Source: an uncultured Gammaproteobacteria bacterium
GTDB lineage: Bacteria > Patescibacteriota > Microgenomatia > Levybacterales > UBA12049
DNA length: 64,000 nt
Reading direction: 5' to 3'
NCBI GenBank assembly: GCA_964503265.1
Contig: CAZCYO010000002.1
Span: 258,604-322,603, forward strand
A model generated the notes under the pieces. It had not been told where the DNA came from and did no database searches. It saw only the letters and a list, made by a program, of their open reading frames with translations. Below, in pieces: positions 3,158-63,886 of this stretch (positions within the stretch are counted from its first letter, which is position 1; every line of letters begins with the position of its first letter). The position numbers were made by a program, and so were the translations under genes.

Positions 3158-3442
3158 AAGGATGATTATACTCCTAGACCTTAATTCCAGCTGAAAATAC
3201 TTATTAAGTAACTTTTATATTCAAAATACGTAGCTAAATCGTTCGTTTGAGCATTGTGTTAAGAAAATCTTGTGGAATGAGCGTTAAAAAACTGTAAGGC
3301 GAAGCGTAGCGTAGTCCGGAGTTTTAGCCCCGATTTAATCGGGGTTAGCGAATGAAAGTAACTTTTTAGCAAAGTGGAACCTAGAACGAGACCCGCCTGC
3401 ATCGCTATGCGAAGCATTGCGGGCAGGGTTTTGGTTCTTTGT

Positions 3443-3467
3443 CGGCACAAAGAACAGAGTAAGAAAT
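3443..3467 (-). terminator. Perfect 9-bp stem hairpin (GTTCTTTGTCGGCACAAAGAAC) downstream of MFS transporter stop
   Basis: Stem ttctttgtc/gacaaagaa seen directly, immediately 3' of the minus-strand stop at 3477. Confidence 0.4.
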
Positions 3468-3476
3468 AATTAATTC

Positions 3477-4700
3477 TTAAAACTCAGAAGCTTTGTGTGC
3501 TGGAGAGGCAGTAATCTTAAATGATAAGAAGTAACAGAGAAACGCGATAATTCCCCCTGCTAGAAAAGGAAATGGAACACCTGCCATCGCGATAGCTCCC
3601 CCAGCAATTGGTCCTGCGATTTGACCGATACTTTGATAGGACGAATTGATTCCCATAATAGATCCCTGTGATTTCGCATCTGTTTCTTGGGAAAGAATGG
3701 TCTGAATAACAGGCGGAACAAATGCATTTGCAAAACTAAGAAGTACTGATACTACGATAAAAAAGAATAAAGACGTCGATAAGAACATAAGTACAAATGC
3801 AACCGCTGTACCTAGAAGCGCATAGGACAGTAACTGTTTTACTCCTAACCATTTCACAACTCGCTCAATAAGAAATGTTTGTGCCAGAAGTCCAACTAAT
3901 CCAAATAACACGAAGGTGAGTGCAATCTCTGCTGGTGTTAAGTGAAGTACTTTTACACAAAACGGTGAATATGCATAAACGAATAAGAAAAATGCGAAGA
4001 AATAAATAAGTGAAATAAGAAGCGATATATTTACTGCTTTATCAAAAAGCACATGATACAGTTTTCCAAAGTCAAATATTTTACCAGTTTGCACTTCTCC
4101 CATATGTTTATTCGTTTCAGGAAGAAACATCGCGGTGATAATAACTGAAATAACGGTAATAACTCCTGCGATAATAAAGGGATATTCAGGTCTAAGTCCG
4201 ACTGTGAGCCCTGCAATAGCTGGCCCGAAAACAAATCCGAAATTAAATGATGCCATGATGATGCCAAATCCACGAGCTCTTTCAGCCCCAGTTGTGGAAT
4301 CAGAAATTACTGCTGATGCGACAGAAAAATTCCCCGCGGTAATTCCATCAAGCGCACGTGCTGCAAAAAGCCAGTATGCATTCTGCGCAAAAGCCATCAT
4401 GAAAAATGATATTGCTGTGCCGATTAAAGAAATAATGAGAAGTGGCCGTCTTCCATATTTATCAGACATGCGACCAATAAGAGGTGTTGAGAAAAACTGA
4501 CAGAGTGAAAACATCGCAAAGAGTAATCCATTTTGAAAATCAGATAATCCAAAACGTTGAGAATACGTATATAGAATCGGAAAAACAATTCCATACCCGA
4601 TCGCACCTACAATCGCGACCAGTGCAATAATAAGAATATTTTTATTTTTAAGCATCCCACCATTTTCCCACACTGTAGCCACGAAAAGCAAGTCATTCAA
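3477..4700 (-). CDS. MFS transporter (drug/H+ antiporter-like)
   Basis: 12-TM architecture, MFS signature around GRMSDKYGRRPLLI. True start may be the internal Met (MLKNKN...). Confidence 0.8.
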   Translation of the reverse strand: MNDLLFVATVWENGGMLKNKNILIIALVAIVGAIGYGIVFPILYTYSQRFGLSDFQNGLLFAMFSLCQFFSTPLIGRMSDKYGRRPLLIISLIGTAISFFMMAFAQNAYWLFAARALDGITAGNFSVASAVISDSTTGAERARGFGIIMASFNFGFVFGPAIAGLTVGLRPEYPFIIAGVITVISVIITAMFLPETNKHMGEVQTGKIFDFGKLYHVLFDKAVNISLLISLIYFFAFFLFVYAYSPFCVKVLHLTPAEIALTFVLFGLVGLLAQTFLIERVVKWLGVKQLLSYALLGTAVAFVLMFLSTSLFFFIVVSVLLSFANAFVPPVIQTILSQETDAKSQGSIMGINSSYQSIGQIAGPIAGGAIAMAGVPFPFLAGGIIAFLCYFLSFKITASPAHKASEF

Positions 4701-4783
4701 GAATCAAGAAATTATGTTTGAAGCTTGAAGATTACATTTATTCAAAAAATCTCCTGTTGTTTTTTTAAAAACTTTGCGCTAGT

Positions 4784-5596
4784 ATGATTACTATGGCAGA
4801 AGTAATCGATCAATCTCCGAAACATTCAGATAACTATATCCGTATTCCGCTCCCTAGTAAAAATACCACAACCCCGGTTCTTATTATCTTACTTGCAATT
4901 GCTGCATTTTATAGTGGCTATGCAACATCAGAAATTAAAAATTTACGTGCAGGAACGACGACTAAACCGACCACTGCTGCTGCAAATATAAGCGGAGCTC
5001 CTGCAGCTGCTCCAACAGAAGACACTAGTCCGAAGAAAGTTGCTCTTAGTGATGCACCAATACTTGGAGATAAAAACGCGCCAGTTACAATTATTGAATT
5101 CTCAGATTACGAGTGTCCATTCTGTAAACAATACTTTACTCAGACATATTCTCAAATTCTTAAAGACTATGTCGATACAGGAAAAGTCAAAATTGCTTTT
5201 AGAAATCTTCCTCTCTCATTCCATCAGAATGCTCACAAAGAAGCCGAAGCTGCTCTTTGTGCAAGAGATCAAGGTGGAGATGAAGCATACTGGAAATTTC
5301 ATGATGAGATGTTCACAAAAACTACTTCTAATGGCCTTGGGTTAGCACTTACTGAACTTCCAAATATCGCAAATAATCTTGGATATAACGGAGATACATT
5401 ACAGAAATGCTTAGATGATGGTAAATACACGAAAACAGTTGACGATGATTTAGCATATTCATCGACAGTCGGTGCAAGTGCAACTCCTACCTTCTTCATT
5501 GGTAAATCAGACAGTAGTGGAACGATCACAGGCACACCACTCATCGGAGCACAGCCTTATTCCACCTTCAAATCCACCATCGACTCCTTGCTATAA
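4784..5596 (+). CDS. DsbA-family thiol:disulfide oxidoreductase, membrane-anchored
   Basis: CPFC thioredoxin active site (EFSDYECPFCKQYF), N-terminal TM, Thr/Ala-rich linker. Confidence 0.8.
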   Translation: MITMAEVIDQSPKHSDNYIRIPLPSKNTTTPVLIILLAIAAFYSGYATSEIKNLRAGTTTKPTTAAANISGAPAAAPTEDTSPKKVALSDAPILGDKNAPVTIIEFSDYECPFCKQYFTQTYSQILKDYVDTGKVKIAFRNLPLSFHQNAHKEAEAALCARDQGGDEAYWKFHDEMFTKTTSNGLGLALTELPNIANNLGYNGDTLQKCLDDGKYTKTVDDDLAYSSTVGASATPTFFIGKSDSSGTITGTPLIGAQPYSTFKSTIDSLL

Positions 5597-5621
5597 TCTA
5601 GCGGTTAGAAACATAAAATTA

Positions 5622-5653
5622 ATGTCATTCTGGAGCGTAGCGATAGAATCTCA
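5622..5653. repeat. MITE-like repeat fragment, family A (TGTCATTCTGGAGC...GATAGAATC)
   Basis: atgtcattctggagcgtagcgatagaatctc matches (inverted) the copy at 33805-33884 and the internal unit at about 22788-22830. Confidence 0.5.
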
Positions 5654-5713
5654 CACAAATACCTTTTTTACAGTTATTTCTAAACGCTAAACGCTTATTT
5701 CTAAACGCTCTCC

Positions 5714-7111
5714 CTACTTTCCTTTCAAAAACAGTAAAAATCCTTCCTGCATATTTTTTCTCTTCTCCTCATCCATACTCTTCAACTTACTCGTAGCATC
5801 AAAAGACTGCTGAATAAATTCTGAATCCATCTCTGATACCTCAGGATTTACCTGAAGTGCTATCTGATTCATCCCCATAAGTTTAAGCCCCGCAAGGCTT
5901 CGAACTCGTGATAACGCCACATACCCCTGTCCTGGAACAAAAGAACGAGAGAGATCTATCTCTGCAGCATCAAGCGTCATTCCCTGACTTTTATGAACCG
6001 TGATCGCCCATGCGAGTCGAAGTGGCAACTGACTGATCGCTGCCTTCACTTGTCCTTCCGAAGATTCATGCGAAGGAGAATCTTCCTTCACTTCCCAACT
6101 TGCTTGTTTAACCGTTATCTCAGCCCCATCAAACGTCCGGACTATTGGAGAGTCTTCCCCGATATCATTTTTAAAAAATCCGATAACTTCACCCAGCGTC
6201 CCGTTTACATACCCTTCATCGTAATTATTTTTGACGAACATCACTTGTGCACCAATCTTGAGATATAATTTTTCAGGAGCGAGACAACTCTTCTTAAGCG
6301 TTTCTGTAAGTGCGAGACTTCCTCGCCAATTCATGAAATATTCTTTCTGTTCACCAAGAAGTGCGTCTAAATGTGCTTTATTTATCGCATCGACATCTGC
6401 GTTATGAGTAAAGAGTCTTGTGGCTCTGGCATATCCTTTTATCTCTTTATTTAATCGTTCAGATAAATATTCGACAGTCATTTCTGTTACCTCATTATTT
6501 CGAATATCGTTAAGAACACGAAGAAACGACCTATCATCTTGTCTGAACTGTTCATCCAAATAACAAATTTGAATATTCATCTGCTCCCACGCATCTGATT
6601 TAACGACAAAATCCGATGACTCATCTTTCTTAGCTACTGGAGGAAGTTGAAAAAAATCCCCACAAAGAATAACTTGTAGTCCCCCAAACGGGAGATCGTT
6701 TCCTTTAAATGTTTTAAGAATCTTATTAACGATATCCAGTTGATGTGCATGTAACATTGATATCTCGTCGATGATCAGTACTTTTGTATGAAGAAATCGA
6801 TTGCGAAGATACTGCCTTTTAAAAAGCTCTCCCATATCGCGAGGAGTCATCTCATCACGAATCCCCATCCCACTCCAACTATGAATCGTCGTTCCACCCA
6901 TATGTGTGGCAGCAATTCCAGTTGATGCCGTAATACCGACCGGAATGTTATGTGATTTAAGATACGCGATGTACTGATTAAGCAGATATGTCTTTCCACT
7001 CCCAGCAGGCCCAGTTAAAAAAACATTATGTCCAAGTTTGAGAATTTCAAGCGCTTCTTTTTGTGTCATGTCGAGGTGATTTATCTTATGTGTTATATAA
7101 CACAAATGCAA
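5714..7111 (-). CDS. PIF1/RecD-like ATP-dependent DNA helicase (AAA_30 family)
   Basis: Walker A GPAGSGKT, Walker B LIIDEISM, helicase motifs; C-terminal RecD-like SH3/2B region (VHKSQGMTLD). Confidence 0.8.
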   Translation of the reverse strand: MHLCYITHKINHLDMTQKEALEILKLGHNVFLTGPAGSGKTYLLNQYIAYLKSHNIPVGITASTGIAATHMGGTTIHSWSGMGIRDEMTPRDMGELFKRQYLRNRFLHTKVLIIDEISMLHAHQLDIVNKILKTFKGNDLPFGGLQVILCGDFFQLPPVAKKDESSDFVVKSDAWEQMNIQICYLDEQFRQDDRSFLRVLNDIRNNEVTEMTVEYLSERLNKEIKGYARATRLFTHNADVDAINKAHLDALLGEQKEYFMNWRGSLALTETLKKSCLAPEKLYLKIGAQVMFVKNNYDEGYVNGTLGEVIGFFKNDIGEDSPIVRTFDGAEITVKQASWEVKEDSPSHESSEGQVKAAISQLPLRLAWAITVHKSQGMTLDAAEIDLSRSFVPGQGYVALSRVRSLAGLKLMGMNQIALQVNPEVSEMDSEFIQQSFDATSKLKSMDEEKRKNMQEGFLLFLKGK

Positions 7112-7144
7112 GATGACGTAAGAAAAATTATGTCATTGCGAAGC

Positions 7145-12183: not shown

Positions 12184-12533
12184 CTATTTATATAGCATAA
12201 CTCATAAAGATTGTAACTATTATGTCTTCTATAATATAAATAACTCCTTATATTTTGTAATTGAAACAAAGAACGTTAAGTTTTTGCGGAGTGAATGTTC
12301 AGGGGGAATCCGGCGTACTGCCGAAGGGGGCGGACAATCCCCCGATAAATGAACGAAGCAAAAATAGTCCGCAGGTGCCCTTTGGGTATCGACTTTCACT
12401 TACAAAAGAGTTTTGGTACTTTTTCGGCAAAAAGTACGATAATGAAAACTACTAATAGGATTTATCTAATAGATCCTCAATCTAGTTGAGGATGACAAGT
12501 AATAGATAGTCACAAATAACAGAGTGAAAGAGA

Positions 12534-13010
12534 TTATGCTATCGATACTACCTTATACTCCACATTCCCTTTAGGTGTCTCAATCACAATTGAATCTCCA
12601 ACACTTTTTTTAAGTAACGCTTTTCCGATTGGAGATTCAACAGATATTTTTGCATCTGCTGGATTTGCTTCAAATTTACTGACAATCATCACCGTACGTG
12701 TAACATCTGCATTCGCAAAAGTCACAGTATTTCCCACTTGAACGACATCACTTTGTACAGACTCAATTACTTTTCCATATTTGAGTAGTTCATTAATTCG
12801 ATAGAGTAAACTATCGATATGGTTGAGTCGAGCCTTTGACGCTTTGTATAATCCATTTTCAGATAAATCACCCATCTCGCGAGCTTTTTGGACTTGTGCA
12901 ATCGTCTCAACTCGTTCTGCGAGTAAGTCATCTTTCTCTTTTTGAAGAGAAATGAATTTTTCTTTGGTTAGTGGAACACTTGGAATAGTTGCCATCCGCC
13001 TATTATACAC
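12534..13010 (-). CDS. greA: Transcription elongation factor GreA
   Basis: Coiled-coil N-domain plus FKBP-like C-domain (GDLSENGLYKASKARL...). Confidence 0.85.
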   Translation of the reverse strand: MYNRRMATIPSVPLTKEKFISLQKEKDDLLAERVETIAQVQKAREMGDLSENGLYKASKARLNHIDSLLYRINELLKYGKVIESVQSDVVQVGNTVTFANADVTRTVMIVSKFEANPADAKISVESPIGKALLKKSVGDSIVIETPKGNVEYKVVSIA

Positions 13011-19154: not shown

Positions 19155-19286
19155 AATACTCCTTTCGCAGTATATACTACCAATTGCATATATTGAATGC
19201 AATAATGCTTAATCAAATCTGTCATCCTCGACCTGATCGAGGATATATACAATAGATTCCTACATTATAACTGCTATAATACTCAA

Positions 19287-21745: not shown

Positions 21746-22663
21746 TTACGAAATAGAAGCAAATCGTTCTGGGTGTTCTGCCTTATAATCCCGACATCCC
21801 ATGGGGCATAACATCGTTTCTTCACCTTTTAGACAATCCTTACACGCGATAAAGTGGCGGTGACAGAAATTGAAGCTACAATTTATATAATTTTCACTTG
21901 GTTTATGACATACAACACATGTTCCAATTATTTTTCGATTCGGATCATCCATATTAAATGACATCACGAGACGACTATCAAACACATAGAGCGATCCCTG
22001 AAAATCTTCACCAGGATATTTTTCCATATATGTCACAATTCCGCCATAGAGTTGATACACATCGTTAAAACCATGTTTTACTAAAAATCCTGATGCTTTC
22101 TCACACCGCACGCCACCAGTACAGACAGTTACAATTGTTTTATCTTTTAAATTATCGAGAACTGATACTTTTTCTTTCAAATCGCGAAAATTATTAAAAT
22201 CAGGAAAAATCGAATTCTCAAATTTCCCGACATTAAATTCATAATCGTTTCGCATATCGACGATCACGAACTCCTTTTCTGAATGAATCCATTCGTGTAG
22301 TTCTTCTGCTTGAATATATTTCCCTGTCGTCTTCGTCGGATCGACATCATCTTCACCCAGATGTGTCGCAACGATTTCAGGGCGAACTTTAATCGAAAGT
22401 TTTGGAAACGCATTTCCCGTTCCTTCACTTCTTTTTATATGCACATCTGAAAACCTTGGATCTTTCAGTAGCTTCTCGACATACAGTTCGACTTGCTTCG
22501 CTGTTCCTTCAAATGTCCCATTAATTCCTTCATGTGCGATAATCATTCGCCCCTTGAGATTTAGTTTTTCCGCCAAGACACGCTGAGAAATCCGAAGCAA
22601 TTCTGGATTATCAATCTGGATATATTTATAAAATAAAATAATAGTATATTTCTCCTGTTTCAT
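21746..22663 (-). CDS. trhO: Rhodanese-domain tRNA U34 hydroxylase TrhO (UPF0176/YceA family)
   Basis: UPF0176 N-domain (MIIAHEGINGTFEG), rhodanese Cys loop CTGGVRCEKA, C-terminal Cys-rich tail. Confidence 0.8.
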   Translation of the reverse strand: MKQEKYTIILFYKYIQIDNPELLRISQRVLAEKLNLKGRMIIAHEGINGTFEGTAKQVELYVEKLLKDPRFSDVHIKRSEGTGNAFPKLSIKVRPEIVATHLGEDDVDPTKTTGKYIQAEELHEWIHSEKEFVIVDMRNDYEFNVGKFENSIFPDFNNFRDLKEKVSVLDNLKDKTIVTVCTGGVRCEKASGFLVKHGFNDVYQLYGGIVTYMEKYPGEDFQGSLYVFDSRLVMSFNMDDPNRKIIGTCVVCHKPSENYINCSFNFCHRHFIACKDCLKGEETMLCPMGCRDYKAEHPERFASIS

Positions 22664-22671
22664 ACAGTTTC

Positions 22672-22870
22672 GTCATTCTGGAAAGTAAGCAGAACCAGGT
22701 ATAGGCTTGTACTTGGCGAAGCGCTCTTTACCAGAATCATTGTATTTTACTATGGAATGCGATCCTGAGCAATGATCTAGACCTTGTCATTCTGGAGCAA
22801 GTATTAACGCAGCTATAGAATCCCAATTTAGTGTAAGATCCTATCGTGATAGTTTCCACTCCAGGATGAC
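22672..22870. repeat. Composite MITE-like element, family A (terminal GTCATTCTGG / CCAGGATGAC inverted repeats, internal second unit)
   Basis: Starts cgtcattctggaaagtaagc..., contains ttgtcattctggagcaagt...ctatagaatccc, ends ccaggatgac. Related copies at 25252-25338, 5622-5653, 33805-33884. Confidence 0.6.
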
Positions 22871-22877
22871 ATTAAAT

Positions 22878-23216
22878 CTACTTCTTTGCAGTCATACTAA
22901 CAGCTACTGCTTTTTCTACCCACTCACCTATTTCTTCTCTATTTTCTAGGATCTCTGATGGAAGAATATAGTAATTAAGGGAAACTTGTTTTTTATTTTT
23001 CCCTTCATACATAAATGGTGTACTTCCCCTATCAATATATTCTTTTCGTGTTGAATCATTCACTTTAAAATATAGTTGATCTTCAATAATCATCCCGAAA
23101 ATGATTCCATCTTTATATAACCCAAACCCGCCAAACATCCCCCGACTTGTTATTCCAGGTACATCTGTCAGCACTTCTTCAAGAATATATTGTAAAAATC
23201 CAGTATCTCGACTCAT
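22878..23216 (-). CDS. TfoX/Sxy N-terminal-domain protein
   Basis: MFGGFGLYKDGIIFGMIIEDQLYFKV pattern characteristic of the TfoX N-terminal domain. Confidence 0.7.
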   Translation of the reverse strand: MSRDTGFLQYILEEVLTDVPGITSRGMFGGFGLYKDGIIFGMIIEDQLYFKVNDSTRKEYIDRGSTPFMYEGKNKKQVSLNYYILPSEILENREEIGEWVEKAVAVSMTAKK

Positions 23217-23250
23217 CTATAGAGTATAGCAAAGTAGCTTTGTCTGTCTT

Positions 23251-24072
23251 CTATGCAGCAATCTGTCGGAAGGCAGCTGCATGATGACCGCGGAGTCTGA
23301 GATGTGGGGAGATCGTAGATATAAATCTCTGTGATTCTCGCCCGTAAACCCGCCACTGAAATGAATCATGCTGTGTACGACGCACCTGACCATCGATGAC
23401 AATTTCAGAACCACTTGGTTTTGTCATCTCGACAGTTCCACCAAACCGATTTGCCATAACACGAAGCAGGTCTTCTTTCGTCGATGAAATTCCATTCCCA
23501 AGTCCGGAAGGGTGATTTGGATTAGTTGGATTATGGATTGAACCACGAGCATCGTAAATACCTGCTACCCATGTATCGAGTAACACTAATCGCTCATAGT
23601 CGCTACTCCCTGAAACTTCTTCTTCATATTCTCCATTTTTATAGGCATGATATATCTCCATTTTTTCTTCATTTGAATTAGCATCACGTATATCTCTATA
23701 TGCTCTAAGTATTCCTTTTCTTCCAGGTGTGAAGTTATCAATACCTTCGACAAATACACCCGCACGTTTCCCTTGCACTTCAATTCGCACTGACTCTCCT
23801 CTTCTTCTCATGCTGATTTCGTTTCCACCTTGTTGAAACATGGGCATGAGGTTGGCAATAACGAGTGGGTCATCATCTGAATATCGCACCGCTAATGAAG
23901 GATATGTATAGATATTCCCGTAGTCGAGTTTGGATTTTTGCACTAAACTAAGTTCTCCAGCAATTGATAACATTCCCCCACGGTGTTCGGAGGGAGAAAG
24001 TCTTAGCGTTTCTTTCGTTTCAGGGATAATTACTTCATGTGGTATTGGAAGTGGTCCATGTTCACGAGGCAT
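23251..24072 (-). CDS. High-GC hypothetical protein with C-terminal LAGLIDADG-like homing-endonuclease fold (second acidic residue replaced: VAGIYDARGS)
   Basis: LLDTWVAGIYDARGSIH... plus downstream KEDLLRVMANRFGGTV...WRVYGRESQRFISTISPHLRL resemble single-motif LAGLIDADG domains. N-terminal 150 aa unknown. GC about 50% versus about 35% host. Confidence 0.5.
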   Translation of the reverse strand: MPREHGPLPIPHEVIIPETKETLRLSPSEHRGGMLSIAGELSLVQKSKLDYGNIYTYPSLAVRYSDDDPLVIANLMPMFQQGGNEISMRRRGESVRIEVQGKRAGVFVEGIDNFTPGRKGILRAYRDIRDANSNEEKMEIYHAYKNGEYEEEVSGSSDYERLVLLDTWVAGIYDARGSIHNPTNPNHPSGLGNGISSTKEDLLRVMANRFGGTVEMTKPSGSEIVIDGQVRRTQHDSFQWRVYGRESQRFISTISPHLRLRGHHAAAFRQIAA

Positions 24073-24192
24073 ACACTCACACTATAGTTCTGTTACAGAT
24101 AAATTTCAAGTCGATATTCCGGAGTCACAGTATAACGGTGATCTGAGCATGCTTTAATCTCGATTACTATCCTAATAACAACGAATTAAATG

Positions 24193-24277
24193 CGGAGAGG
24201 GCGAGATTCGGACTCGCGAAACCTTGCGGTTCGGCGGTTTAGTAAACCGCTGCACTCGACCACTATGCGACCTCTCC
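24193..24277 (-). tRNA. tRNA-Ser-like (type II, long variable arm, G73), anticodon loop UUACUAA (anticodon ACU), atypical C55 in T-loop
   Basis: Minus strand GGAGAGG-UC-GCA-UAGUGGUCGAG-UGC-A-GCGGU-UUACUAA-ACCGC-CGAACCGCAAGGUUUC-GCGAG-UCCGAAU-CUCGC-CCUCUCC-G folds as a cloverleaf closely parallel to E. coli tRNA-Ser. A34 and C55 are unusual, so it may be a pseudo-tRNA. Confidence 0.55.
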
Positions 24278-24369
24278 TTAATAAATTGTTCTAACGTTCT
24301 TATTATTCTGTTTTCCGTGATGTTGCCTCCGGCTCGACCAACCCTAAAGGGTCTCGCTTCGCTCGATAT

Positions 24370-24426
24370 GCGACCTCTCCATAATTTACTTAAGTTTTAG
24401 GTCGTCCTGTTGAGGGCGACCTCTCC
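24370..24426 (-). repeat. Two partial duplications of the tRNA 5' end (GGAGAGGTCGC)
   Basis: GCGACCTCTCC recurs at 24370-24380 and 24416-24426 (and at the tRNA itself, 24267-24277). The intervening sequence contains tRNA-like fragments (GGUCGAG). Confidence 0.55.
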
Positions 24427-24451
24427 GAGTCACGATATTGTAGCAGAAAAT

Positions 24452-25258
24452 CTATATTTGACCAAGAAGATATGCCTTTCGTTCTTCCTTTGTGAATCGT
24501 TCAATAGCATAACGAAGCATGGTTCTTGGCATAGTTTTATAATATTTATTTAGAAATTCTTTTTCTGCTTTTTCTGAAACTCTTTTTCCAACTTCTCGAA
24601 GCAACCATCCTACTGCTTTATGGATAAGGTCATGCGTATCATGAAGAAGGATCTCAGCGATTGTAAATGTAATATCTGATTCTCCATTCATAATAAAGGG
24701 AAAGGTAGCGATAATGGAAATTCTTCTCTCCCAAAGATTTTCTGAATAAGCAAGTTTCGTTAATACCTCTGTATGTTTGTCATTCCCGTGAAAATCACGA
24801 TCCTCCGAAGGGGGACGGGAATCTATTTGAAGAGATCCCGTGTCTCGTCGAGGATGACATTGAGTGTAGAGATATCCTCCCACAATATACCCAGCTGAGC
24901 TGTCGATTAAATCCCAGTTATTAATATAGACAGTATTTGCTAGATATAGATCGTATATCTCTTTTTTAACTGTCTCATCTCCTTTTTGGAATTGATGAAT
25001 AAGAATAAAAAGCGCGATAAGACGTTCTTCGTGATATTTCGACTGGAGCAATGATAGAACATCTGTGCGCGAAAGCTCGAAATAGCGTTTAGCAACCGCT
25101 CGAGATTGTGGAACAGTAAGTCCTACAAAAACATCTCCATATCCGTACTCTCCTTCTTTTGTTTTAAAAAACCTCTGTGAAGCTTTCGCTTTTTCAAGAC
25201 TTCCAAGTGTATGAATTTCTTCTTTAATATTTTCTAATGTGTTCATAGATGATGTCAT
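24452..25258 (-). CDS. DNA alkylation repair glycosylase, AlkD/HEAT-like repeat family, carrying an in-frame 85-bp repeat insertion
   Basis: AlkD-like helices (WDLIDSSAGYIVG, KAVGWLLREVGK). Residues about 131-160 (YTQCHPRRDTGSLQIDSRPPSEDRDFHGND) are encoded by a copy of the family-B palindromic repeat. Confidence 0.7.
   Translation of the reverse strand: MTSSMNTLENIKEEIHTLGSLEKAKASQRFFKTKEGEYGYGDVFVGLTVPQSRAVAKRYFELSRTDVLSLLQSKYHEERLIALFILIHQFQKGDETVKKEIYDLYLANTVYINNWDLIDSSAGYIVGGYLYTQCHPRRDTGSLQIDSRPPSEDRDFHGNDKHTEVLTKLAYSENLWERRISIIATFPFIMNGESDITFTIAEILLHDTHDLIHKAVGWLLREVGKRVSEKAEKEFLNKYYKTMPRTMLRYAIERFTKEERKAYLLGQI
24778..24862. repeat. MITE-like palindromic repeat, family B, inserted in-frame within the alkD-like CDS
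   Basis: tgtcattcccgtgaaaatcacgatcctccgaagggggacgggaatctatttgaagagatcccgtgtctcgtcgaggatgacattg is about 85% identical to the intergenic copy at 63783-63866. Confidence 0.75.
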
Positions 25259-25338
25259 TCTGGAAAGTAAGCGGAGCGCTCTTTACCAGAATCGATTCCG
25301 GACCACGATTTAATCGGTGCGGATGAGCCGGAATGACA
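25252..25338. repeat. MITE-like element family A with 12-bp TIRs (ATGTCATTCTGG / CCGGAATGACAT)
   Basis: Intergenic between the alkD-like gene and the FKBP gene. Internal CGATTTAATCGG motif shared with the element at about 3320-3345. Confidence 0.6.
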
Positions 25339-25454
25339 TTACACATTATAACCCATTTCTTACTCGACAAAGTCTGTTTTGTCTGATAAGGTATGTCTAT
25401 ATTCTTCGAGCAAAGAGAGAAGTAGTTCTCATTTCATTCGAACGATAATCATAC

Positions 25455-25781
25455 ATGGATAAATTAAAAATTGAAGAAATAAAAATAGGAAAAGGCGAAG
25501 TGGTCAAAGAAGGCGACCATGTCATCATGCACTATACAGGCTGGCTTGAGGATGGCACGAAATTTGATTCATCATATGATCGTGATCAAGCATTTGAAAC
25601 AGCTATCGGTGTCGGATACGTTATTAAAGGCTGGGATATGGGAGTACCTGGAATGAAAGTTGGAGGGAAAAGAAAACTTACTATTCCCCATCATTTAGGA
25701 TACGGTAAATATGGCGTTGAACCTTCCATTCCTCCCCTAGCAACGCTCATTTTTGAAGTAGAACTCCTCGGAAAGAAATAA
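25455..25781 (+). CDS. FKBP-type peptidyl-prolyl cis-trans isomerase
   Basis: FKBP signature ([21 protein letters not shown]...[27 protein letters not shown]...LIFEVELL). Confidence 0.9.
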
Positions 25782-25855
25782 GTATTCTCTGTAGGTTTCC
25801 GAGAGGCAGAAAAGCGTTCGCTTCTCCACCCCTCGGTATTGTCGTCTTCTGTAAG

Positions 25856-26674
25856 CTACGGCATCACCCTTCGTACATGGCTCAAAGATCCAAACATGCC
25901 AGTGCGAACAAGGTGTGCCGGAATAACGAAGTCACCGTTCATAAGTTTGCCTGTAACTTCCATGCCGAGCACTTGCGTAGGCAAGAAAGCCCGCAGTTGA
26001 GGACTCAGCGAGTCCTCATACCAGACTGGACAGCCAGCGTCTTCAGGAAGCTGGAACGAGCTGAAGAAGATCCAGTGATCCACGTCAACGAGTCCCCTCT
26101 GCGGGATGCCACCAGTATGAGCATCGATCCCCGGCAGCCGGAAGACGTTAGGTTCGGATGTGCGATACCACACCATGATCGGTGTAGCTTTCATCGCCTC
26201 GTAGTTGTCAAAGCAACACAGTGCGAACGAAAACCCCGGATAGCTCTCCGCGTAGAACGAGACGAGCTCTGGGCTAATCTTCGGCCGCTGGTTCTCAGGG
26301 ACCTGCAGAAGCGCTGCCGGGATGAGAGTCGGATCAGAGGTCAGAAGCACGGTATAGATACCATGCCTGAAGACCTCAACAGATTTCGCCCCACTCGAAC
26401 GAGTCGAGAACCCAAGTGACCTCAAAGGAGGAGAGATGGCATACCGCATATCACGCATGATACGTGGACAACTTTCCGTCGGGATGAAGTTCGCCTGCGT
26501 CACCGGCTCACCACCCGGGATATGCAGAAGCATACAGTTGGGACCGTAGGGAGAGAGATTCTTGGCAGAGTTCTCATACACCATAACACGGATCTCTCCG
26601 AGTGTGGGATGATTGACTTCACCGAGAAATACGGATGTTCCGCTCAATTGTGCTGGAGCACTCGTAACACACAT
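25856..26674 (-). CDS. High-GC hypothetical protein (272 aa)
   Basis: Longest ORF spanning an about 0.85 kb patch of about 55% GC. No recognisable domain. The overlapping plus-strand ORF 25877-26419 is Arg-rich and looks antisense. Confidence 0.35.
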   Translation of the reverse strand: MCVTSAPAQLSGTSVFLGEVNHPTLGEIRVMVYENSAKNLSPYGPNCMLLHIPGGEPVTQANFIPTESCPRIMRDMRYAISPPLRSLGFSTRSSGAKSVEVFRHGIYTVLLTSDPTLIPAALLQVPENQRPKISPELVSFYAESYPGFSFALCCFDNYEAMKATPIMVWYRTSEPNVFRLPGIDAHTGGIPQRGLVDVDHWIFFSSFQLPEDAGCPVWYEDSLSPQLRAFLPTQVLGMEVTGKLMNGDFVIPAHLVRTGMFGSLSHVRRVMP

Positions 26675-26918
26675 GGGATAGTTCTCCTTCTTGCGTTCGA
26701 GGCCATCTATCTCGAGTCATTCATCAGTCTCTCGGCGTTGCAGTAACTGGCATTCCTCCTTATGCCTGTACTACGTATAAGACTGATTGATGGCTTTCTA
26801 TTTCGATCATGTCGAAACAGAAAATCACCAACCAATCGTTGGTATACAGACAAAGGATAGCTATTAAAGAGCGACGCGAGAATTTTATCAAACCAAGAAG
26901 TAAATATCAACTATAGGG

Positions 26919-27485: not shown

Positions 27486-27563
27486 AGGTATAGTCTATTT
27501 TGAGCTAAATACAAACACCTTGTCAAATTAAAATAATCACTATTCCCAAGTAACACTTACGGA

Positions 27564-37048: not shown

Positions 37049-37049
37049 G

Positions 37050-39681: not shown

Positions 39682-39704
39682 TTTATTTCACCACCTTTCA
39701 CATC

Positions 39705-39794
39705 TGTCATTGCGAGGAACGAAGTCGAAGATCCTCGAACGGGGCAATCTCTTATTATTTTCTATAAGATCGCCGCGCTTCGCTCGCGATGACA
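39705..39794. repeat. MITE-like element family C (TGTCATTGCGAGG...CTCGCGATGACA termini)
   Basis: tgtcattgcgaggaacgaagtcgaagatcctcgaacgg...cgcgcttcgctcgcgatgaca. Half-copies at about 7128-7145, 19214-19240, 12470-12500. Confidence 0.55.
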
Positions 39795-39801
39795 AAGATT
39801 T

Positions 39802-40245
39802 CTAATTTTCAAACCCATACTCCGAAAAGTATATGTTTTCTTGATAATTCTTGAGTGCTTGTCTTACAGACGGCGTCATATTATCAGGCAGTTCATTTAG
39901 AGAGAACCACTGCAAATCATCACATTTATCTGCTTCCATAACCCGTGGTATCCCAATCCACTTTGTCGCTTGGAAAAATATTTCCATACATTCAATATTT
40001 GATCGTGTATGCATGACATGGACCACTGTTAAATCTTTTTCAGCAATCGTAATATCTGCTTCTTCTTTTGCTTCACGAATGATTGAGTCGATTAAGCTCA
40101 CATCTCCATCGTGATGTCCAGCAATTAGGCCATAATTGCCATCTTCATACCCAGTGTTATATCTACGAGAAAGAAGCACTTCGTTATTTTTAACGAGAAT
40201 CAAATGAACACCAATTCTAAATGTAACACGTTCTTGAGTCGGCAT
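39802..40245 (-). CDS. NUDIX hydrolase
   Basis: Nudix box GHHDGDVSLIDSIIREAKEEADI. Confidence 0.85.
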   Translation of the reverse strand: MPTQERVTFRIGVHLILVKNNEVLLSRRYNTGYEDGNYGLIAGHHDGDVSLIDSIIREAKEEADITIAEKDLTVVHVMHTRSNIECMEIFFQATKWIGIPRVMEADKCDDLQWFSLNELPDNMTPSVRQALKNYQENIYFSEYGFEN

Positions 40246-40270
40246 ACTTCAGCTATAATACCAAATCTTA

Positions 40271-41875
40271 CTAACTTTTCAAAACGATTGAAATAGCCAC
40301 AGGACTTCCCGTTAATTCGCGACACACTTTTTCAAGTGATTCCATAGTCGCACCATGGTCTAATTTTTCTTTATGGAATTTATATGCAGTCTCAATGATA
40401 AGTGTTTTTCTATCAAAACTTTTAATAAAACAGCCACGGAGTACTCCTGCAATCGTATGATTATGTGCTTTCATTTCAGAGATAATACATTTCCAAAACG
40501 TATCCATCCATTCTTTTGTAATTTCCCCATCGTTACCTAAGTGTGCCAATTGCAAATCAGTCGTTCGAATCGGTTCGACCACTTCTTCGGGCTCTTTCGA
40601 TTCACCATACAGCGCTTTAATTTTCGCGATATTTCCCACCTGTTTTCGCATTGAGGAAATCGTCACCCCTTCATCTTTTATCATATTCCCATGTTCTACA
40701 ACTTTTTTTTCAACAACGTCAATCTCCTTATTTGAAGCTTGAGGCTTTGAGCTTGCAACTTCACCATGCCCACACCATTCAAATAACGCGAGCTCAAGCG
40801 GTAACTGTACTAATACCGTATTCTTCATTTCCCCATGTGCTTTTGAAAGTATCATTAAGATCTGAGATAACTCTTGTTTCGATAATAATGCGTCTTGAGT
40901 CTTGGGGCTTGAAACTTGTGAAAGCAGCAGGTCATGGAATGCTTCTGTGAGCTGCAGCATAAAAAATCGCATCTCAATCCCCTGACTAATAACTGTCTGA
41001 ATAGCTTGTAATCCTTTTTGAATATCCTTTGTTTCAAATGAAGCAATCAAATCCAGAATAAGTCGTCCAGTATGTTGTGTATGATATTTCTCCTCAACTA
41101 ACTCTTTCGTAATTTTTTTCCCTGCAGTCAGTGAAACGATCTCTTCAAGTAATTTTGCTCCATCTCGAAATCCTCCATCTGACATCTTCGCAATTTCAAA
41201 AAGTGCATCATCATCTGCCTCTAATTTCTCTCCAATTATAATGCGCTTAAATGAACGCACAAGCTCTTCTGGTGTCGCTTTGGTAAATGACACATGAAAG
41301 CATCGTGAAAAAATAGTTGCAGGGACTTTATGCGTTTCTGTCGTACAGAGAATAAACATCGCATGTGTTGGTGGCTCTTCAAGCGTTTTGAGAAGTGCGT
41401 TAAACGCTTCTGTCGTTAACATGTGGACTTCATCAATAATGTAAATTTTCTTTTTTGCGTTAACTGGGGAAAGTTTAATTTTTTCTTTTAGGTCACGAAT
41501 CTCATCAATACCTCGATTAGAAGCAGCATCGATTTCCATAACATCTAAATTATTTCCACTTGTAATCGAAATACACTGTTCACAGACATTACACGGCTCG
41601 ATTGAATTGCCTAGAGCATAGGGCATAGAGCTAAGAGTCTCCTCTTCATTTTTACCCTTTGCTCTTTGCGCTTCGCTTTTTTCCTTTCCCGTACAATTAA
41701 CCACCTTCGCAACAATTCTTGCACTAGATGTTTTACCAAGTCCCTTAGGTCCAGTAAATAAAAATGCATGAGGAATTGATTCGGGCGTAGCTAAAATAGC
41801 AGTAAGACTTTCACGAACCTGAGCGTTATCAAGTTCGCCGATTGTTTGATTACGATATTTTCGATAAAAAACCAT
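40271..41875 (-). CDS. dnaX: DNA polymerase III subunit gamma/tau
   Basis: Walker A GPKGLGKTS, Zn module CNVCEQC, DEVHML Walker B, sensor motifs. About 25-aa Lys/Glu-rich insertion before the zinc module. Confidence 0.9.
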   Translation of the reverse strand: MVFYRKYRNQTIGELDNAQVRESLTAILATPESIPHAFLFTGPKGLGKTSSARIVAKVVNCTGKEKSEAQRAKGKNEEETLSSMPYALGNSIEPCNVCEQCISITSGNNLDVMEIDAASNRGIDEIRDLKEKIKLSPVNAKKKIYIIDEVHMLTTEAFNALLKTLEEPPTHAMFILCTTETHKVPATIFSRCFHVSFTKATPEELVRSFKRIIIGEKLEADDDALFEIAKMSDGGFRDGAKLLEEIVSLTAGKKITKELVEEKYHTQHTGRLILDLIASFETKDIQKGLQAIQTVISQGIEMRFFMLQLTEAFHDLLLSQVSSPKTQDALLSKQELSQILMILSKAHGEMKNTVLVQLPLELALFEWCGHGEVASSKPQASNKEIDVVEKKVVEHGNMIKDEGVTISSMRKQVGNIAKIKALYGESKEPEEVVEPIRTTDLQLAHLGNDGEITKEWMDTFWKCIISEMKAHNHTIAGVLRGCFIKSFDRKTLIIETAYKFHKEKLDHGATMESLEKVCRELTGSPVAISIVLKS

Positions 41876-41879
41876 AATT

Positions 41880-42019
41880 GAAAGTTAAAAGTGAGAAGCA
41901 AAAAGGCAAAAGCACAATTAAAAATTACGAACTAGATCCTGAATCAAGTTCAAGATGACAAGTCAGTTTTTACTTTTGAACTGTATTTTTGAGTTTTGAC
42001 TTTTACTTTTTGCATTCCT
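41880..42019. repeat. Palindromic intergenic repeat (AAAGTTAAAAGTGAGAAGCAAAA...TTTTGACTTTTACTTTTTGC), family D
   Basis: Related palindromic copy at 44397-44490 (aaaagttagaagtcaaaa...ttttgacttttcagtttttacttct). Confidence 0.5.
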
Positions 42020-46009: not shown

Positions 46010-46447
46010 AAGTTAGTAGATAATAGTTAGAAGATAGAATGAATAAGATTAATTCATTTAAAGATCTTTATGCTTGGCAAAAAGGACACGCTCTTGTACT
46101 CCTTGTCTATCAAATCACTAACCATTTACCTCAACGAGAACAATTTGCACTTATCAGCCAAATGCAACGCGGAGCAATTTCAATAATAAGTAATTTAGCT
46201 GAAGGATTCTCAAGAAGAGGAATCAAAGATAAAATGCATTTCTATTATATAGCTCTTGGATCTACTACAGAAATTGAAAACCAATTGTTAGTTTGTAAAG
46301 ATCTAGGTTATATTAATGAAATTATATTCAACGATGCAGATTTATTAATAACCGAGGTAAAAAAATTAATAAATGGACTAGTTAAAAGCACCAAAAATCG
46401 TAGTTAACCACTATCTCCTAACTCCTATCTTTTAACTACTCTTCCTA
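46008..46447. mobile_element. Inverted-repeat-flanked cassette carrying four-helix-bundle gene, copy 2
   Basis: Left arm gaagttagtagataatagttagaagatag versus right arm reverse complement gaagagtagttaaaagataggagttaggagatag. The right arm overlaps the proS stop region. Confidence 0.45.
46039..46407 (+). CDS. Four-helix-bundle protein (23S rRNA IVS protein family), paralog 2
   Basis: ...SQMQRGAISIISNLAEGFSR...LGSTTEIENQLLVCKDLGYI pattern. Confidence 0.75.
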   Translation: MNKINSFKDLYAWQKGHALVLLVYQITNHLPQREQFALISQMQRGAISIISNLAEGFSRRGIKDKMHFYYIALGSTTEIENQLLVCKDLGYINEIIFNDADLLITEVKKLINGLVKSTKNRS

Positions 46448-48314: not shown

Positions 48315-49313
48315 CTACTCGTTTTTTTTCTTAACTGCATGCCCACCAAACTCTCTTCGTAGTGCAGCCACCATTTTCGCGGCAAATGAATCTCGAATGT
48401 TTGGGTCTATCTTTGATCTTCGTCTAAAATCAAGTGATTGCTCGATATTCTCAATCGGAACTCCTTCTTTTTTCGCTTCTTGAATCGTCCACTCACCTTC
48501 CCCTGTCGCATCAATCTCACCTATAATATCTGACAATGTATTATCTTTTTCAAGAGCATCTCGTGCACGATCAATGAGAAAGCTATCGACGATCGTTCCG
48601 TGCTGCCAGAGCTTTGATACTTCGAGTAAGTCTATATCATATGGAGCTTTCTCAAGTACACCAAACCCCTCTCCGATCGCTTGCATCATGCCATACTCAA
48701 TGCCATTATGCACCATCTTTACGAAATGTCCTGCTCCACCAGTTCCGAGATATGCATGCCCACCGTTTGGTTTCGCTAAACTATCAAGAAGAGAACTAAT
48801 CTCTTCATAAGCACTTTTATCCCCACCAACCATCATCGGATATCCTTCTTTCTCTGCAATTACTCCACCCGATACGCCAATTCCTAAAAATCGAACGTGT
48901 TTTTCTTTAAAAAGATTCGCGCGTCTTTCTGTATCATGAAAATTTGCATTCGCACCATCGATCACAATAGCTTCGTTATTTGTCATTCCGGTCCCGCCTG
49001 ACGGGATCAAGACTTCTCCGGAATCTTTTTCCGATGTAAGAATGCCAAGTGCTTCCTGAAGAATTTGCTCACTTGCATCACCTGATGGCAGCATGGACCA
49101 AATAACTTTTGGTGACTCAAGACATGAAACAGCATCTACAACTGTATCCTTCGCAGATAGCTTACCATCTAATTTCTTATCAGTCATACTCTTAAAAAAT
49201 TCTTCGACCACATCTTTTGAACGATTCCACACTACTACCTCATGTCCATCACGAAGTAACTTCTCAACCATCCGCGTTCCCATTTTTCCAAGCCCCAAAA
49301 ATCCTAGTTTCAT
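48315..49313 (-). CDS. gnd: 6-phosphogluconate dehydrogenase (decarboxylating), short YqeC-type
   Basis: N-terminal Rossmann GFLGLGKMG, 6PGDH C-domain (HFVKMVHNGIEYGMMQ). Confidence 0.85.
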   Translation of the reverse strand: MKLGFLGLGKMGTRMVEKLLRDGHEVVVWNRSKDVVEEFFKSMTDKKLDGKLSAKDTVVDAVSCLESPKVIWSMLPSGDASEQILQEALGILTSEKDSGEVLIPSGGTGMTNNEAIVIDGANANFHDTERRANLFKEKHVRFLGIGVSGGVIAEKEGYPMMVGGDKSAYEEISSLLDSLAKPNGGHAYLGTGGAGHFVKMVHNGIEYGMMQAIGEGFGVLEKAPYDIDLLEVSKLWQHGTIVDSFLIDRARDALEKDNTLSDIIGEIDATGEGEWTIQEAKKEGVPIENIEQSLDFRRRSKIDPNIRDSFAAKMVAALRREFGGHAVKKKNE

Positions 49314-57125: not shown

Positions 57126-57145
57126 AGAGGAAGTTTATTATAACA

Positions 57146-57569
57146 AAGCAAAGGGCATAGAGCAAAGGGCTAAGAGTTTCTTACAAGAGAATTTCTAAAT
57201 GCTCTTATTTTGCGTGAAAGTATATCTGCTTTGTCGTATAACTCTTTAAGTTGCGTCGAAGAAATGTAATCTTGTTCTTTTGCTAATTGTAAGTGAGAAA
57301 CAGACCGTATAAGGATTTAATTGCTATTTCGAGGTAATGAGCAAAGTCTTTCTTTGAGCTACTCCCCGATCCTTCGGCTATGTTTGCAGCAATAGAGGCA
57401 GCACATCTTCTTAATTGATCTGTTAACGAAAAAAGCTCTCTAGAGGGAAATCGTTCTGTTAATTTATAAATAAGTTTTGCAAATAGGATTGCATCTCTCC
57501 AAATTTCTAGTTCTTCAAACCGAAAAGCCATATTGAATACTCTATGCTCTAAGCCCTTTGCTCTATGCA
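57146..57569. mobile_element. Inverted-repeat-flanked cassette carrying four-helix-bundle gene, copy 3
   Basis: Left arm aagcaaagggcatagagcaaagggctaagag (57146-57176). Right arm ctctatgctctaagccctttgctctatgc (57540-57569) is its reverse complement. Confidence 0.55.
57283..57558 (-). CDS. Four-helix-bundle protein (23S rRNA IVS protein family), paralog 3
   Basis: MAFRFEELEIWRDAILFAKLIYKLTERFPSRELFSLTDQLRRCAASIAANIAEG... The N-terminal extension of the longer ORF is encoded by the IR arm and overlaps frr. Confidence 0.7.
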   Translation of the reverse strand, partial: KGLEHRVFNMAFRFEELEIWRDAILFAKLIYKLTERFPSRELFSLTDQLRRCAASIAANIAEGSGSSSKKDFAHYLEIAIKSLYGLFLTYN

Positions 57570-57577
57570 ATGACTCG

Positions 57578-58132
57578 CTAGATCGCGAGTAATTCCTCTT
57601 CTTTTTGCTTTCCCATTCCGTCAATCGTACTCATCATCGCATCAACTGTTTTCTGTACTTCTTTTTCAATTCGTTCTACTTCATCTTCTGAAATACCTTC
57701 AAGTTTTTTAATATGATCCATCGCATCGTGTCGAGCTTGACGCGTCATGACTCTTCCATTTTCCAGTTTATGATGCATGAGTTTGATCAGTTCCTCGCGA
57801 CGTTCCTGAGAAAGAGGCTGGATACTGATTCGAACGACACCGCTATCTACCACTGGAGTAAGTCCAGTATTTGCATCTTGGATCCCTTTTTGAACTTCGT
57901 TAATAATTGATTGGTCAAAAGGTGTAATGACGATAGTCTGAGCATCGAGTGTGCCGATCGTCGCCAGTTCCATAATACGCATTTTCGCTGAACCACCATA
58001 CACAGAAATCGTGAGATTTTCGACAAGTGACGGAGCCGCACGACCAGTACGAATAGTGCCTAAATCTGTTTTAAGAACTTCCATTACTCTTTGGATTTGT
58101 TGGGTAAGGTTTTGTAAAATTTGATTATCCAT
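57578..58132 (-). CDS. frr: Ribosome recycling factor
   Basis: Typical 184-aa RRF (RTGRAAPSLVENLTISVYG...). Confidence 0.95.
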   Translation of the reverse strand: MDNQILQNLTQQIQRVMEVLKTDLGTIRTGRAAPSLVENLTISVYGGSAKMRIMELATIGTLDAQTIVITPFDQSIINEVQKGIQDANTGLTPVVDSGVVRISIQPLSQERREELIKLMHHKLENGRVMTRQARHDAMDHIKKLEGISEDEVERIEKEVQKTVDAMMSTIDGMGKQKEEELLAI

Positions 58133-63231: not shown

Positions 63232-63269
63232 GTTGGGATTACTATAATAGCTATTAATGCTATTTGCAA

Positions 63270-63758
63270 CTACTCTTTTTCAAGCGTTAGAAAGGTGTAC
63301 TGTTTCTCGCTAGACTGACCAGCTGTTTCAGCAATTTTTTTTGTGAATTTGTGATACTCCGGGAAAAATACGGAACTGTTGTGTGTTCCTTTCACCAGTG
63401 TCAGATATAAACGATCAACGATATCTACTGCTTCAGTAAAAATCTGTCCTCCTCCAATAATAAAAATTTCTTCTTGATCATGTTTGGACGCAAGAGCTAT
63501 AGCATCAGAAAGTGAATGTACTATTTCTGCTCCTTCAAGCACATATGATTCATCGCGCGTAATAATAATATTTACTCGCTTTGGAAGGAGTCGTCCGATT
63601 GATTCATATGTTTTTCTCCCCATAATAACTGGATGACCGGAGGTTATCTCTTTAAAATGTTTCAAATCTTCAGGGATATGCCAAGGAAGTGTATTTTCAC
63701 GCCCAATTCCCCGCTCATCATCTATCGCGACAATAATACTAATTCTTGGTTTGTTCAT
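63270..63758 (-). CDS. folA: Dihydrofolate reductase
   Basis: ISIIVAIDDERGIGRENTLPWHIPEDLKHFKEIT... DHFR signature. Confidence 0.9.
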   Translation of the reverse strand: MNKPRISIIVAIDDERGIGRENTLPWHIPEDLKHFKEITSGHPVIMGRKTYESIGRLLPKRVNIIITRDESYVLEGAEIVHSLSDAIALASKHDQEEIFIIGGGQIFTEAVDIVDRLYLTLVKGTHNSSVFFPEYHKFTKKIAETAGQSSEKQYTFLTLEKE

Positions 63759-63782
63759 ATATTTATATTATATTTTAAAATA

Positions 63783-63866
63783 TGTCATTCCCGCGAAGGT
63801 GACTATCCTCCGAAGGGGGACGGGAATCTATTGATAAGATCCCCGATCAAGCCGGGGATGACAATG
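63783..63866. repeat. MITE-like palindromic repeat, family B (intergenic copy)
   Basis: tgtcattcccgcgaaggtgactatcctccgaagggggacgggaatctattgataagatccccgatcaagccggggatgacaatg. Two internal hairpins (ATTCCCG/CGGGAAT, ATCCCCG/CGGGGAT). Confidence 0.7.
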
Positions 63867-63886
63867 AAAGCAAAATGCTTATACAG

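Follow-up and report, generated by a model that had tools for sequence, protein, structure and literature searches.

The 64-kb stretch of contig CAZCYO010000002.1 analysed here (positions 258,604–322,603; hereafter the window) carries about 20 oriented DNA hairpins built from a TGTC tag, a stem that opens and closes with AT, a loop, and a trailing C. These are CGTC/TGTC-tagged palindromic repeats, also referred to as Ssn-related or NTS-like motifs, an already described class of repetitive extragenic palindromic (REP) sequences. In our overall interpretation, to which we assign a probability of roughly 0.7, they are gene-less cassettes of a GIY-YIG type that are read by an Ssn-type nuclease encoded elsewhere in the genome. 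New here are the host group, the Candidate Phyla Radiation (CPR), the families with expanded loops, especially the one termed family A, and a recurrent insertion site in the gene alkD. The window has a G+C content of 38% and a CPR-like content of small genes, and the named closest homologs of its AlkD protein come from Microgenomates or "Patescibacteria group" bacteria. A preliminary description of the window had reported dispersed, structured families resembling REPs or MITEs (small transposable elements bounded by inverted repeats) with common TGTCAT...ATGACA termini, and their excess over shuffled sequence and the 80–90% identity between copies uphold that report.

Anatomy of the unit and excess over chance

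Every site was read, and the basic unit proved to be the single oriented hairpin rather than the 80–90-bp element: an unpaired TGTC tag precedes a stem opening with AT, which is followed by the loop, the closing AT, and an unpaired C. Fourteen units form seven inverted pairs with their tags facing outwards (at 22785, 24778, 25253, 28855, 33805, 39705 and 63783), an arrangement that produces the TGTCAT...ATGACA termini, and six are solitary (5622, 12472, 19220, 22671, 41935 and 48981). The tag is TGTC in 18 of 20 units, CGTC at 22671 and AGTC at 33805, and all units have the AT opening and AT closing of the stem. The GTC 5' and the C 3' of the palindrome are likewise present throughout, except for the tail at 19220 (A) and the degenerate right arm at 28855. 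An 8-bp stem with a 5-nt loop is found in four short units (12472, 19220, 41935 and 63838). The basal stem spans 5–8 bp in long-loop units, and in all but the short units the basal arms are separated by 13–49 nt, in many cases including a nested hairpin; such inner hairpins occur inside the loops of the units at 24778 and 48981. In family A the basal stem is only 5 bp long and is followed by a conserved block without Watson-Crick pairing (CTGGAG / CGATAG) and by an apical hairpin that varies.

The elements fall into several families and are commoner than expected by chance. The octamer TGTCATYC occurs 16 times, against 5.6 ± 2.4 in 100 dinucleotide shuffles, none of which reached 16, and TGTCATTCTGGAG, with up to two mismatches, occurs eight times against 1.7 expected. 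A scan for the unit anatomy (GTCAT followed by a stem of at least seven pairs, with AT opening and AT closing) returned 14 units, compared with 2.96 (maximum 7) in third-order Markov simulations. An anchor-only test of stem complementarity within the window alone yielded three cases versus 0.25 expected (maximum 3), too few for a strong test, and a relaxed energy-based scan (24 versus 7.4 expected) was noisy and served only to confirm known copies. Pairwise identities amount to 90% over 50 nt (24778–24827 and 63783–63832), 89% over 37 nt (5618–5654 and 33851–33887) and 80% over 41 nt (19220–19260 and 63823–63863). Folding was computed as single-stranded DNA, with z-scores relative to shuffles; several copies fold better than their shuffles (z of −3 to −4) and others do not.

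The individual elements are listed below, with the strand in brackets and inverted pairs given as unstranded (.).

5622–5650 (+): single family A unit, (A)TGTCATTCTGGAGCGTAGCGATAGAATC; 89% identical to the arm at 33851–33887 and conforming to the family A pattern of at least 120 loci; flanked by two convergent genes, DsbA-like (4784–5596, +) and PIF1 helicase (5714–7111, −).
7131–7143 (+): doubtful 13-nt remnant, TGTCATTGCGAAG, matching a family C head, with no partner arm and no stem in either scan.
12472–12497 (−): short canonical unit, TGTC-ATCCTCAA-CTAGA-TTGAGGAT-C, with an 8-bp stem and a 5-nt loop; fold −6.4 kcal/mol, z = −3.4; 37 bp downstream of greA (12534–13010, −).
19220–19262 (+): short unit, TGTC-ATCCTCGA-CCTGA-TCGAGGAT-A, plus a spacer remnant (..CAATAGATTCC); z = −4.3; truncated half of a family B pair, 80% identical to 63823–63863, between divergent genes.
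22671–22738 (+): long-loop unit with a CGTC tag; arms as in 25253–25293, loop about 27 nt longer.
22785–22871 (.): family A inverted pair, tags outside, with units 22785–22822 (+) and 22837–22871 (−); between tfoX-like and trhO-like genes.
24778–24859 (.): family B inverted pair, in frame in alkD (24452–25246, −), encoding ..CHPRRDTGSLQIDSRPPSEDRDFHGNDK..; 90% identical to 63783–63832.
25253–25338 (.): inverted pair with units 25253–25293 (+) and 25294–25338 (−); z = −3.3; directly upstream of alkD, between divergent genes.
28855–28942 (.): inverted pair; left unit family A-like with a CCCGATGAACATCGGG apical hairpin, right arm degenerate; whole-element fold no better than its shuffles (z = −0.5); occupies a 103-bp gap of convergent genes.
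33805–33882 (.): family A inverted pair with a degenerate left tag (AGTC); right unit on the − strand, TTGTCA-16 nt-TAGAAT; 11 bp upstream of the recR start codon.
39705–39794 (.): family C inverted pair (TGTCATTGCGAGG...GCAATC / GATCGC...CGCGATGACA); fold −21.7 kcal/mol, z = −4.1; occupies a 120-bp gap between ybaB-like and NUDIX genes.
41935–41960 (−): short unit, TGTC-ATCTTGAA-CTTGA-TTCAGGAT-C; absent from the preliminary description.
48981–49025 (+): single unit of 45 nt (15 codons), in frame in a 6-phosphogluconate dehydrogenase (6PGDH)-like gene (48315–49313, −); z = −3.0.
63783–63863 (.): family B inverted pair, 25 bp upstream of a folA-like gene (63270–63758, −).

The locations reported earlier do hold elements, and the unit at 41935–41960 had been missed. 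At 7131 only the 13-nt head is found: the half-site proposed at 7128 comes down to TGTCATTGCGAAG without a partner arm and is doubtful. The claim that the sites are intergenic applies to most of them, with the pair at 24778–24859 and the unit at 48981–49025 lying inside genes. The half-sites at 12472 and 19220 had been placed in family C and are instead short units with 8-bp stems that resemble the right arm of family B. The block at 3290–3440, formerly taken as related, was rejected as a family member: it has neither tag nor tail and has only an 11-nt hairpin core in common with the unit at 25294–25338. The occurrence of TGTCATTC at 58518 was treated as chance because it is intragenic and stemless.

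Two further observations concern the surroundings of the elements. The minimal family A unit at 33856–33883 (−), TTGTCA-16 nt-TAGAAT, matches a sigma-70 promoter at 10 of 12 positions, with the recR start 61 nt downstream; by this consensus match, element arms might supply promoters. Short AT-rich tandem or dispersed repeats (TATTTGTAGTATTTGA.., TTATTTCTAAACGCT..) are found beside some elements, at 1160–1212, 33947–34029 and 5650–5710.

Assignment to the CGTC-tagged REPs

The superfamily of CGTC-tagged REPs was defined by Di Nocera, De Gregorio and Rocco in 2013 (PMC3733652). Its members bear a CGTC or TGTC tag, stems of 8–9 bp in which the first pairs are A-T and T-A, loops of 4–5 nt with some exceptions allowed, and short tails; there are intragenic copies, and the dimers are predominantly of the "HH" kind, with tags outside (PMC3733652). 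It includes dRS3 of Neisseria as well as RPE-4 (in CGTC-4) and RPE-6 (in CGTC-1) of Rickettsia, and has no association with the REP-associated tyrosine transposases (RAYTs), no flanking tyrosine transposase gene and no known dedicated transposase (PMC3733652). The window elements agree with this class in the unpaired CGTC/TGTC tag, the AT-first stem, the 8-bp stem and 5-nt loop of the short units, the short unpaired tail (often C-C/T-C/T-A), the several families per genome, the intragenic copies, notably in DNA-repair genes, and the tags-outside dimers, the tags being outside in seven of seven pairs as in "HH". They differ in their CPR/Patescibacteria-like host, which is outside the five phyla of PMC3733652, in the loops of 13–49 nt, often with a nested hairpin, of many units, and in the 5-bp basal stem, CTGGAG / CGATAG block and variable apical hairpin of family A. 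A literature search found no description of such repeats in CPR.

The NTS repeat, CGTCATTCCCGCGMAVGCGGGAATCYRG with arms CGTCATTCCCGCG..CGCGGGAATC, encompasses dRS3, the older of the two repeats (Chenal et al. 2025, PMC11893778). SsnA, a 94-aa single-domain GIY-YIG nuclease whose gene is typically flanked by the motif, binds and cuts NTS only as single-stranded DNA; the three bases preceding the palindrome (GTC) govern cleavage, no base matters more for binding than the C that follows the palindrome, and the hairpin loop can be extended with cleavage retained (PMC11893778). In the window, the left arm of family B, TGTC ATTCCCG...CGGGAAT C, has the core of NTS around a longer loop, and the GTC tag and post-stem C are conserved. 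As with NTS and SsnA, a GIY-YIG gene of about 95 aa stands between inverted motifs in related DNA; unlike the NTS setting, the window is without an ssn gene and its units are mostly paired and not clustered. The resemblance to RPE-4 and RPE-6, the intragenic form of this class, drawn by description and not by sequence, lies in the in-frame insertion of palindromes into coding genes with 15–30 residues added in surface loops, whereas the host phylum and the host genes (alkD, 6PGDH-like) differ.

Distribution beyond the window

The family A unit was searched as TGTCATYCTGGAG N6-30 GATAGRATC with one genome per species and was present in at least 120 loci, whereas calculation gives about 7 chance matches. 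The elements are therefore not confined to the window and extend to many phyla. Among the matches listed, the hosts comprise Fibrobacter, many CPR phyla, Gammaproteobacteria metagenome-assembled genomes (MAGs), Clostridia, Bacteroidales and a few archaea-labelled MAGs, these last labels being as recorded and possibly including binning errors. The pair at 33805 is 74–80% identical, over 79–93 nt, to pairs in seven other loci among the matches listed; six of these are CPR-labelled (Curtiss-, Levy-, Roizman- and Daviesbacteria, Paceibacterota and Saccharibacteria), and the remaining one (L069) bears the label of an uncultured Gammaproteobacteria MAG. Phage carriage was rejected as the main cause of this wide distribution because viral contigs are nearly devoid of such elements.

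Family A units frequently form window-like pairs in the CPR and Gammaproteobacteria loci that were read; those of Fibrobacter are frequently solitary or sit nested within another unit's loop. In eight Fibrobacter loci (L018, L022, L029, L033, L084, L088, L040 and L093), a family A unit occupies precisely the loop of a second tagged hairpin, as in TGTCATCCTCGC[TGTCATTCTGGAGCGCAGCGATAGAATC]ACGAGGATC. Such nesting suggests either preferential entry at the loop or a modular construction of the hairpins.

A GIY-YIG gene bracketed by the same motifs

Family A loci were searched for GIY-YIG genes using a relaxed regular expression and phmmer. Four small GIY-YIG genes were found in the 120 loci, among the matches listed, and three of them form one subfamily. 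In the Saccharibacteria locus L104, the gene has family A units on both sides and the cassette ends in TGTCAT...ATGACA. In the CPR relative L204, which is partly syntenic with the window through alkD and its neighbours, the GIY-YIG gene is flanked by TGTC hairpins.

The subfamily was then assessed in 80 metagenomic loci encoding it, with orientation counted in 72. Unit density was 0.97 per kb within 100 bp of the gene and 0.10 per kb at 2–5 kb. The head YGTCATYS lay on the + strand within 150 nt upstream of the gene in 44 of 72 loci, the tail SRATGACR within 150 nt downstream in 54, and both together in 35; the opposite arrangement was seen in seven, and the background was 4.4% per 160-nt window. 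The flanking arms have stems of the types ATTGCGAG, which accompanies most genes, ATTCTGAG, ATTCCCG and ATCCCGAG, and two of these are in common with the window: ATTGCGAG is the family C arm and ATTCCCG the family B arm. In these cassettes, the upstream arm stands 30–50 nt before the start codon. The related proteins have 95–97 aa, and the Tyr-Tyr-Glu residues occupy positions 7/18/65 in the L074 protein and 6/17/64 in SsnA. Given that a cassette with the same outward arms around a gene for a single-domain nuclease of roughly 95 aa is frequent in metagenomes and present in a CPR relative, the window pairs look like gene-less (MITE- or REPIN-like) versions of it.

A gene with a TfoX N-terminal domain lies near alkD both in the window (22878–23216) and in the relative L205 (11317–11667). 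TfoX proteins are tied to competence regulation in other bacteria, and this proximity may matter should incoming single-stranded DNA be what the repeats act on.

In-frame insertions in alkD and the 6PGDH-like gene

The insert in alkD splits the Pfam DNA_alkylation match into two stretches. Among the 120 closest homologs, the loop that receives it measures 5 aa in 52 and 18–56 aa in 25, and it has 33 aa in the window protein. The long inserts are often repeat-like in translation (VIARSEA...KQS...ARND or CHPE...GND), and the homologs that bear them are scattered in a rough neighbour-joining tree in which the nearest relatives of the window protein have no insert. At the DNA level, L204, L205 and L207 each have a complete pair with outward tags as their insert, the families being different, and the right junction is identical in the window and these three relatives, with three codons separating it from the conserved VL.KLA. 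These observations point to a single tolerant or preferred alkD loop that was entered, or had its insert replaced, more than once.

Compared with solved homologs, the product of the 6PGDH-like gene carries about 19 additional aa just before the IIDGGN motif. Both genic inserts keep the reading frame, and from this and the Pfam matches on both sides we infer that the host fold is retained in each case.

In alkD, the insert adds 84 nt for an element of 82 nt, with AA on both sides, a pattern absent elsewhere. The preliminary description had raised the prospect of target-site duplications; the flanks were read, and the flanking di- or trinucleotides differ at the seven window pairs and at three pairs of relatives, with no consistent duplication.

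Proposed mechanism and points against it

By analogy with Chenal et al. (2025), the hairpin would form when the DNA is single-stranded, as in replication or following DNA uptake. It would then be bound, with the post-stem C being critical, by an Ssn-type nuclease whose gene lies elsewhere in the genome, and this nuclease would nick a few nucleotides 5' of the GTC tag; nicking would trim incoming single-stranded DNA or redirect its recombination. A role of the elements as recombination substrates is likewise plausible from the Neisseria NTS work. The same type of nuclease would also be the leading candidate for a spread of the elements that leaves no target duplication; spread by such a nuclease is speculative. 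Insertion itself has taken place repeatedly, also in frame, in putative surface loops of alkD and the 6PGDH-like gene.

Several observations weigh against this interpretation. We know of no demonstration of Ssn-driven mobility, even in Neisseria. The evidence for the partner enzyme comes from related DNA and not from this organism, and no GIY-YIG open reading frame (ORF) was detected in the 64-kb window, with partial ORF coverage. The likeness of the related proteins to SsnA consists of length and catalytic-residue spacing only. A PDB search with the GIY-YIG protein returned a weak UPF0213 match and no solved Ssn structure, and NCBIfam gave sub-threshold GIY-YIG-type matches only. Membership in the Ssn family is defined by CDD cd10448 or homology to N. 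meningitidis SsnA at E < 1e-10 (PMC11893778). The strict Ssn-related motif (SRM) pattern HGTCWYN(0-2)YYVSBRHN(0-5)WNVSBRGN(0-2)RNCYNB has no match in the window, versus 0.13 in shuffles, and the class was consequently assigned by individual defining features; by our reading, the unit at 63838–63863 fails the pattern only at the last base, and others fail on loop length, stem composition or tail. Finally, the near-identical contigs that were compared displayed no presence/absence polymorphism of elements, and L002 differs from the window in two substitutions and scaffolding Ns only.

A bolder version, which is possible but which we regard as doubtful, takes the pairs as non-autonomous copies of Ssn-type cassettes and the nuclease as the missing mobiliser of CGTC REPs. 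This enzyme would still be active across CPR, inserting with no target duplication and colonising one alkD loop in frame time after time; the elements would be a regular supply of new peptide segments to the small CPR proteomes, and family A (TGTCATYCTGGAG..GATAGRATC), nearly identical between Fibrobacter and CPR and also seen in archaea-labelled MAGs, would be a distinct recognition variant with an extended modular hairpin.

Alternative explanations

The elements could act at the RNA level, as terminators, mRNA-stabilising hairpins or insulators maintained by selection, with spread by a nuclease being irrelevant today. This is the alternative that survives best, and we still consider it improbable. 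Most copies do occupy short gaps of tandem or convergent genes, several fold significantly better than shuffles, and many REPs have been argued to be transcribed (Di Nocera et al., PMC3733652). However, a scan for terminator-like sites (a stem plus a T run) in 22001–42000, the 20 kb holding most copies, found 13, none of which overlaps an element, and such sites are no commoner there than in shuffles. Copies also lie at gene 5' ends, between divergent genes (19220 and 25253) and inside two genes, and elements occur in both orientations, so the terminator function suggested earlier finds no support. In addition, the conserved unpaired tag and tail and the sequence conservation across phyla point to recognition by a protein rather than to mere stability.

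Mobilisation of REP or REPIN elements by a RAYT (TnpA-REP, an IS200/IS605-like tyrosine transposase), the partner formerly envisaged, is very unlikely. REP-RAYT systems are organised likewise (PMC3733652), and REP, BIME and REPIN elements share with the window units the short tagged hairpins, the inverted doublets, the lack of target duplication and a presumed recognition of single-stranded DNA. The tag, however, is (C/T)GTC rather than GTAG, CGTC REPs are reported without a flanking tyrosine transposase gene (PMC3733652), and neither a Y1 transposase nor any other transposase family was found among the 20 window ORFs, a subset of the total, that were scanned against Pfam. The gene bracketed by the motifs in the 80 metagenomic loci encodes a GIY-YIG nuclease instead of an HUH tyrosine transposase.

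Classical MITEs, that is, deletion derivatives of an insertion sequence with a DDE transposase, are just as poorly favoured. Terminal inverted repeats of the form TGTCATYC/GRATGACA and a length of 80–90 bp would suit them, but target-site duplications are found at none of seven window pairs and none of three relative pairs, solitary single units exist, and no insertion sequence or transposase was detected in the window at partial Pfam coverage. The family A unit moreover ranges from Fibrobacter to CPR, unlike MITEs that are specific to an insertion sequence. Chance palindromes or low-complexity sequence, which would account for the single sites at 7131 and 58518 that are no better than random, can be set aside almost entirely, as counts are far above shuffles, copies are 80–90% identical over 37–50 nt and the family A unit recurs in at least 120 loci.

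Other features of the window

Three genes for "23S rRNA-intervening-sequence (IVS) proteins" with a four-helix bundle are present at 32721–33184, 46039–46407 and 57283–57624; the one that was tested matches PF05635. The first (32786–33151) is bracketed by 37-nt inverted repeats with heptamer runs (GTATCAC GG..) that are 89% complementary, an arrangement suggestive of a separate small cassette. A second short repeat, GCAAAGGGCATAGAGCAAAGGGC-like and unrelated to the TGTC units, occurs in inverted orientation at 2466–2494, 41655–41682 and 57142–57175, with one copy adjoining the third IVS-protein gene.

At 3321–3358 (−) there is a solitary hairpin similar to a CRISPR direct repeat (Rfam CRISPR-DR52; 25 bits and E = 0.016, short of the family threshold); it is single-copy in the window, with no cas gene in its vicinity, and no Rfam family matched the whole window at gathering thresholds. 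A very stable stem-loop followed by a T-rich run lies at 3385–3440 (+), with z = −3.3 for the region, and 3321–3440 may be a small RNA gene. The island at 34000–38300, with 53% G+C, is probably acquired DNA; its three ORFs (272, 664 and 409 aa) have no Pfam family except for a weak HATPase_c_3 match in one. The tRNA-Ser at 24192–24277 (−) has the anticodon loop TT-ACT-AA and thus the anticodon ACU rather than the usual GCU; A34 is unusual for a bacterial tRNA-Ser.

Biological implications

Since the class was described in 2013 and its likely protein partner in 2025, the main value of this analysis lies in filing the elements correctly. If the density of about 20 units in 64 kb of a CPR/Patescibacteria-like genome held genome-wide, it would match that of the repeat-rich symbionts of the Ssn paper (PMC11893778). 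The outward tags common to the gene-less pair and the gene-bearing cassette support the idea, as yet unproven, of nuclease-driven spread.

The genetic manipulation of Saccharibacteria reportedly relied on natural transformation. Trimming of incoming single-stranded DNA by a combination of nuclease and repeats could therefore be of consequence for gene exchange in CPR and for their engineering, cultivated Saccharibacteria having been genetically manipulated (PMC10633639). The alkD loop, entered many times by different families in CPR relatives, provides a natural series for studying both insertion and the tolerance of a protein to it.

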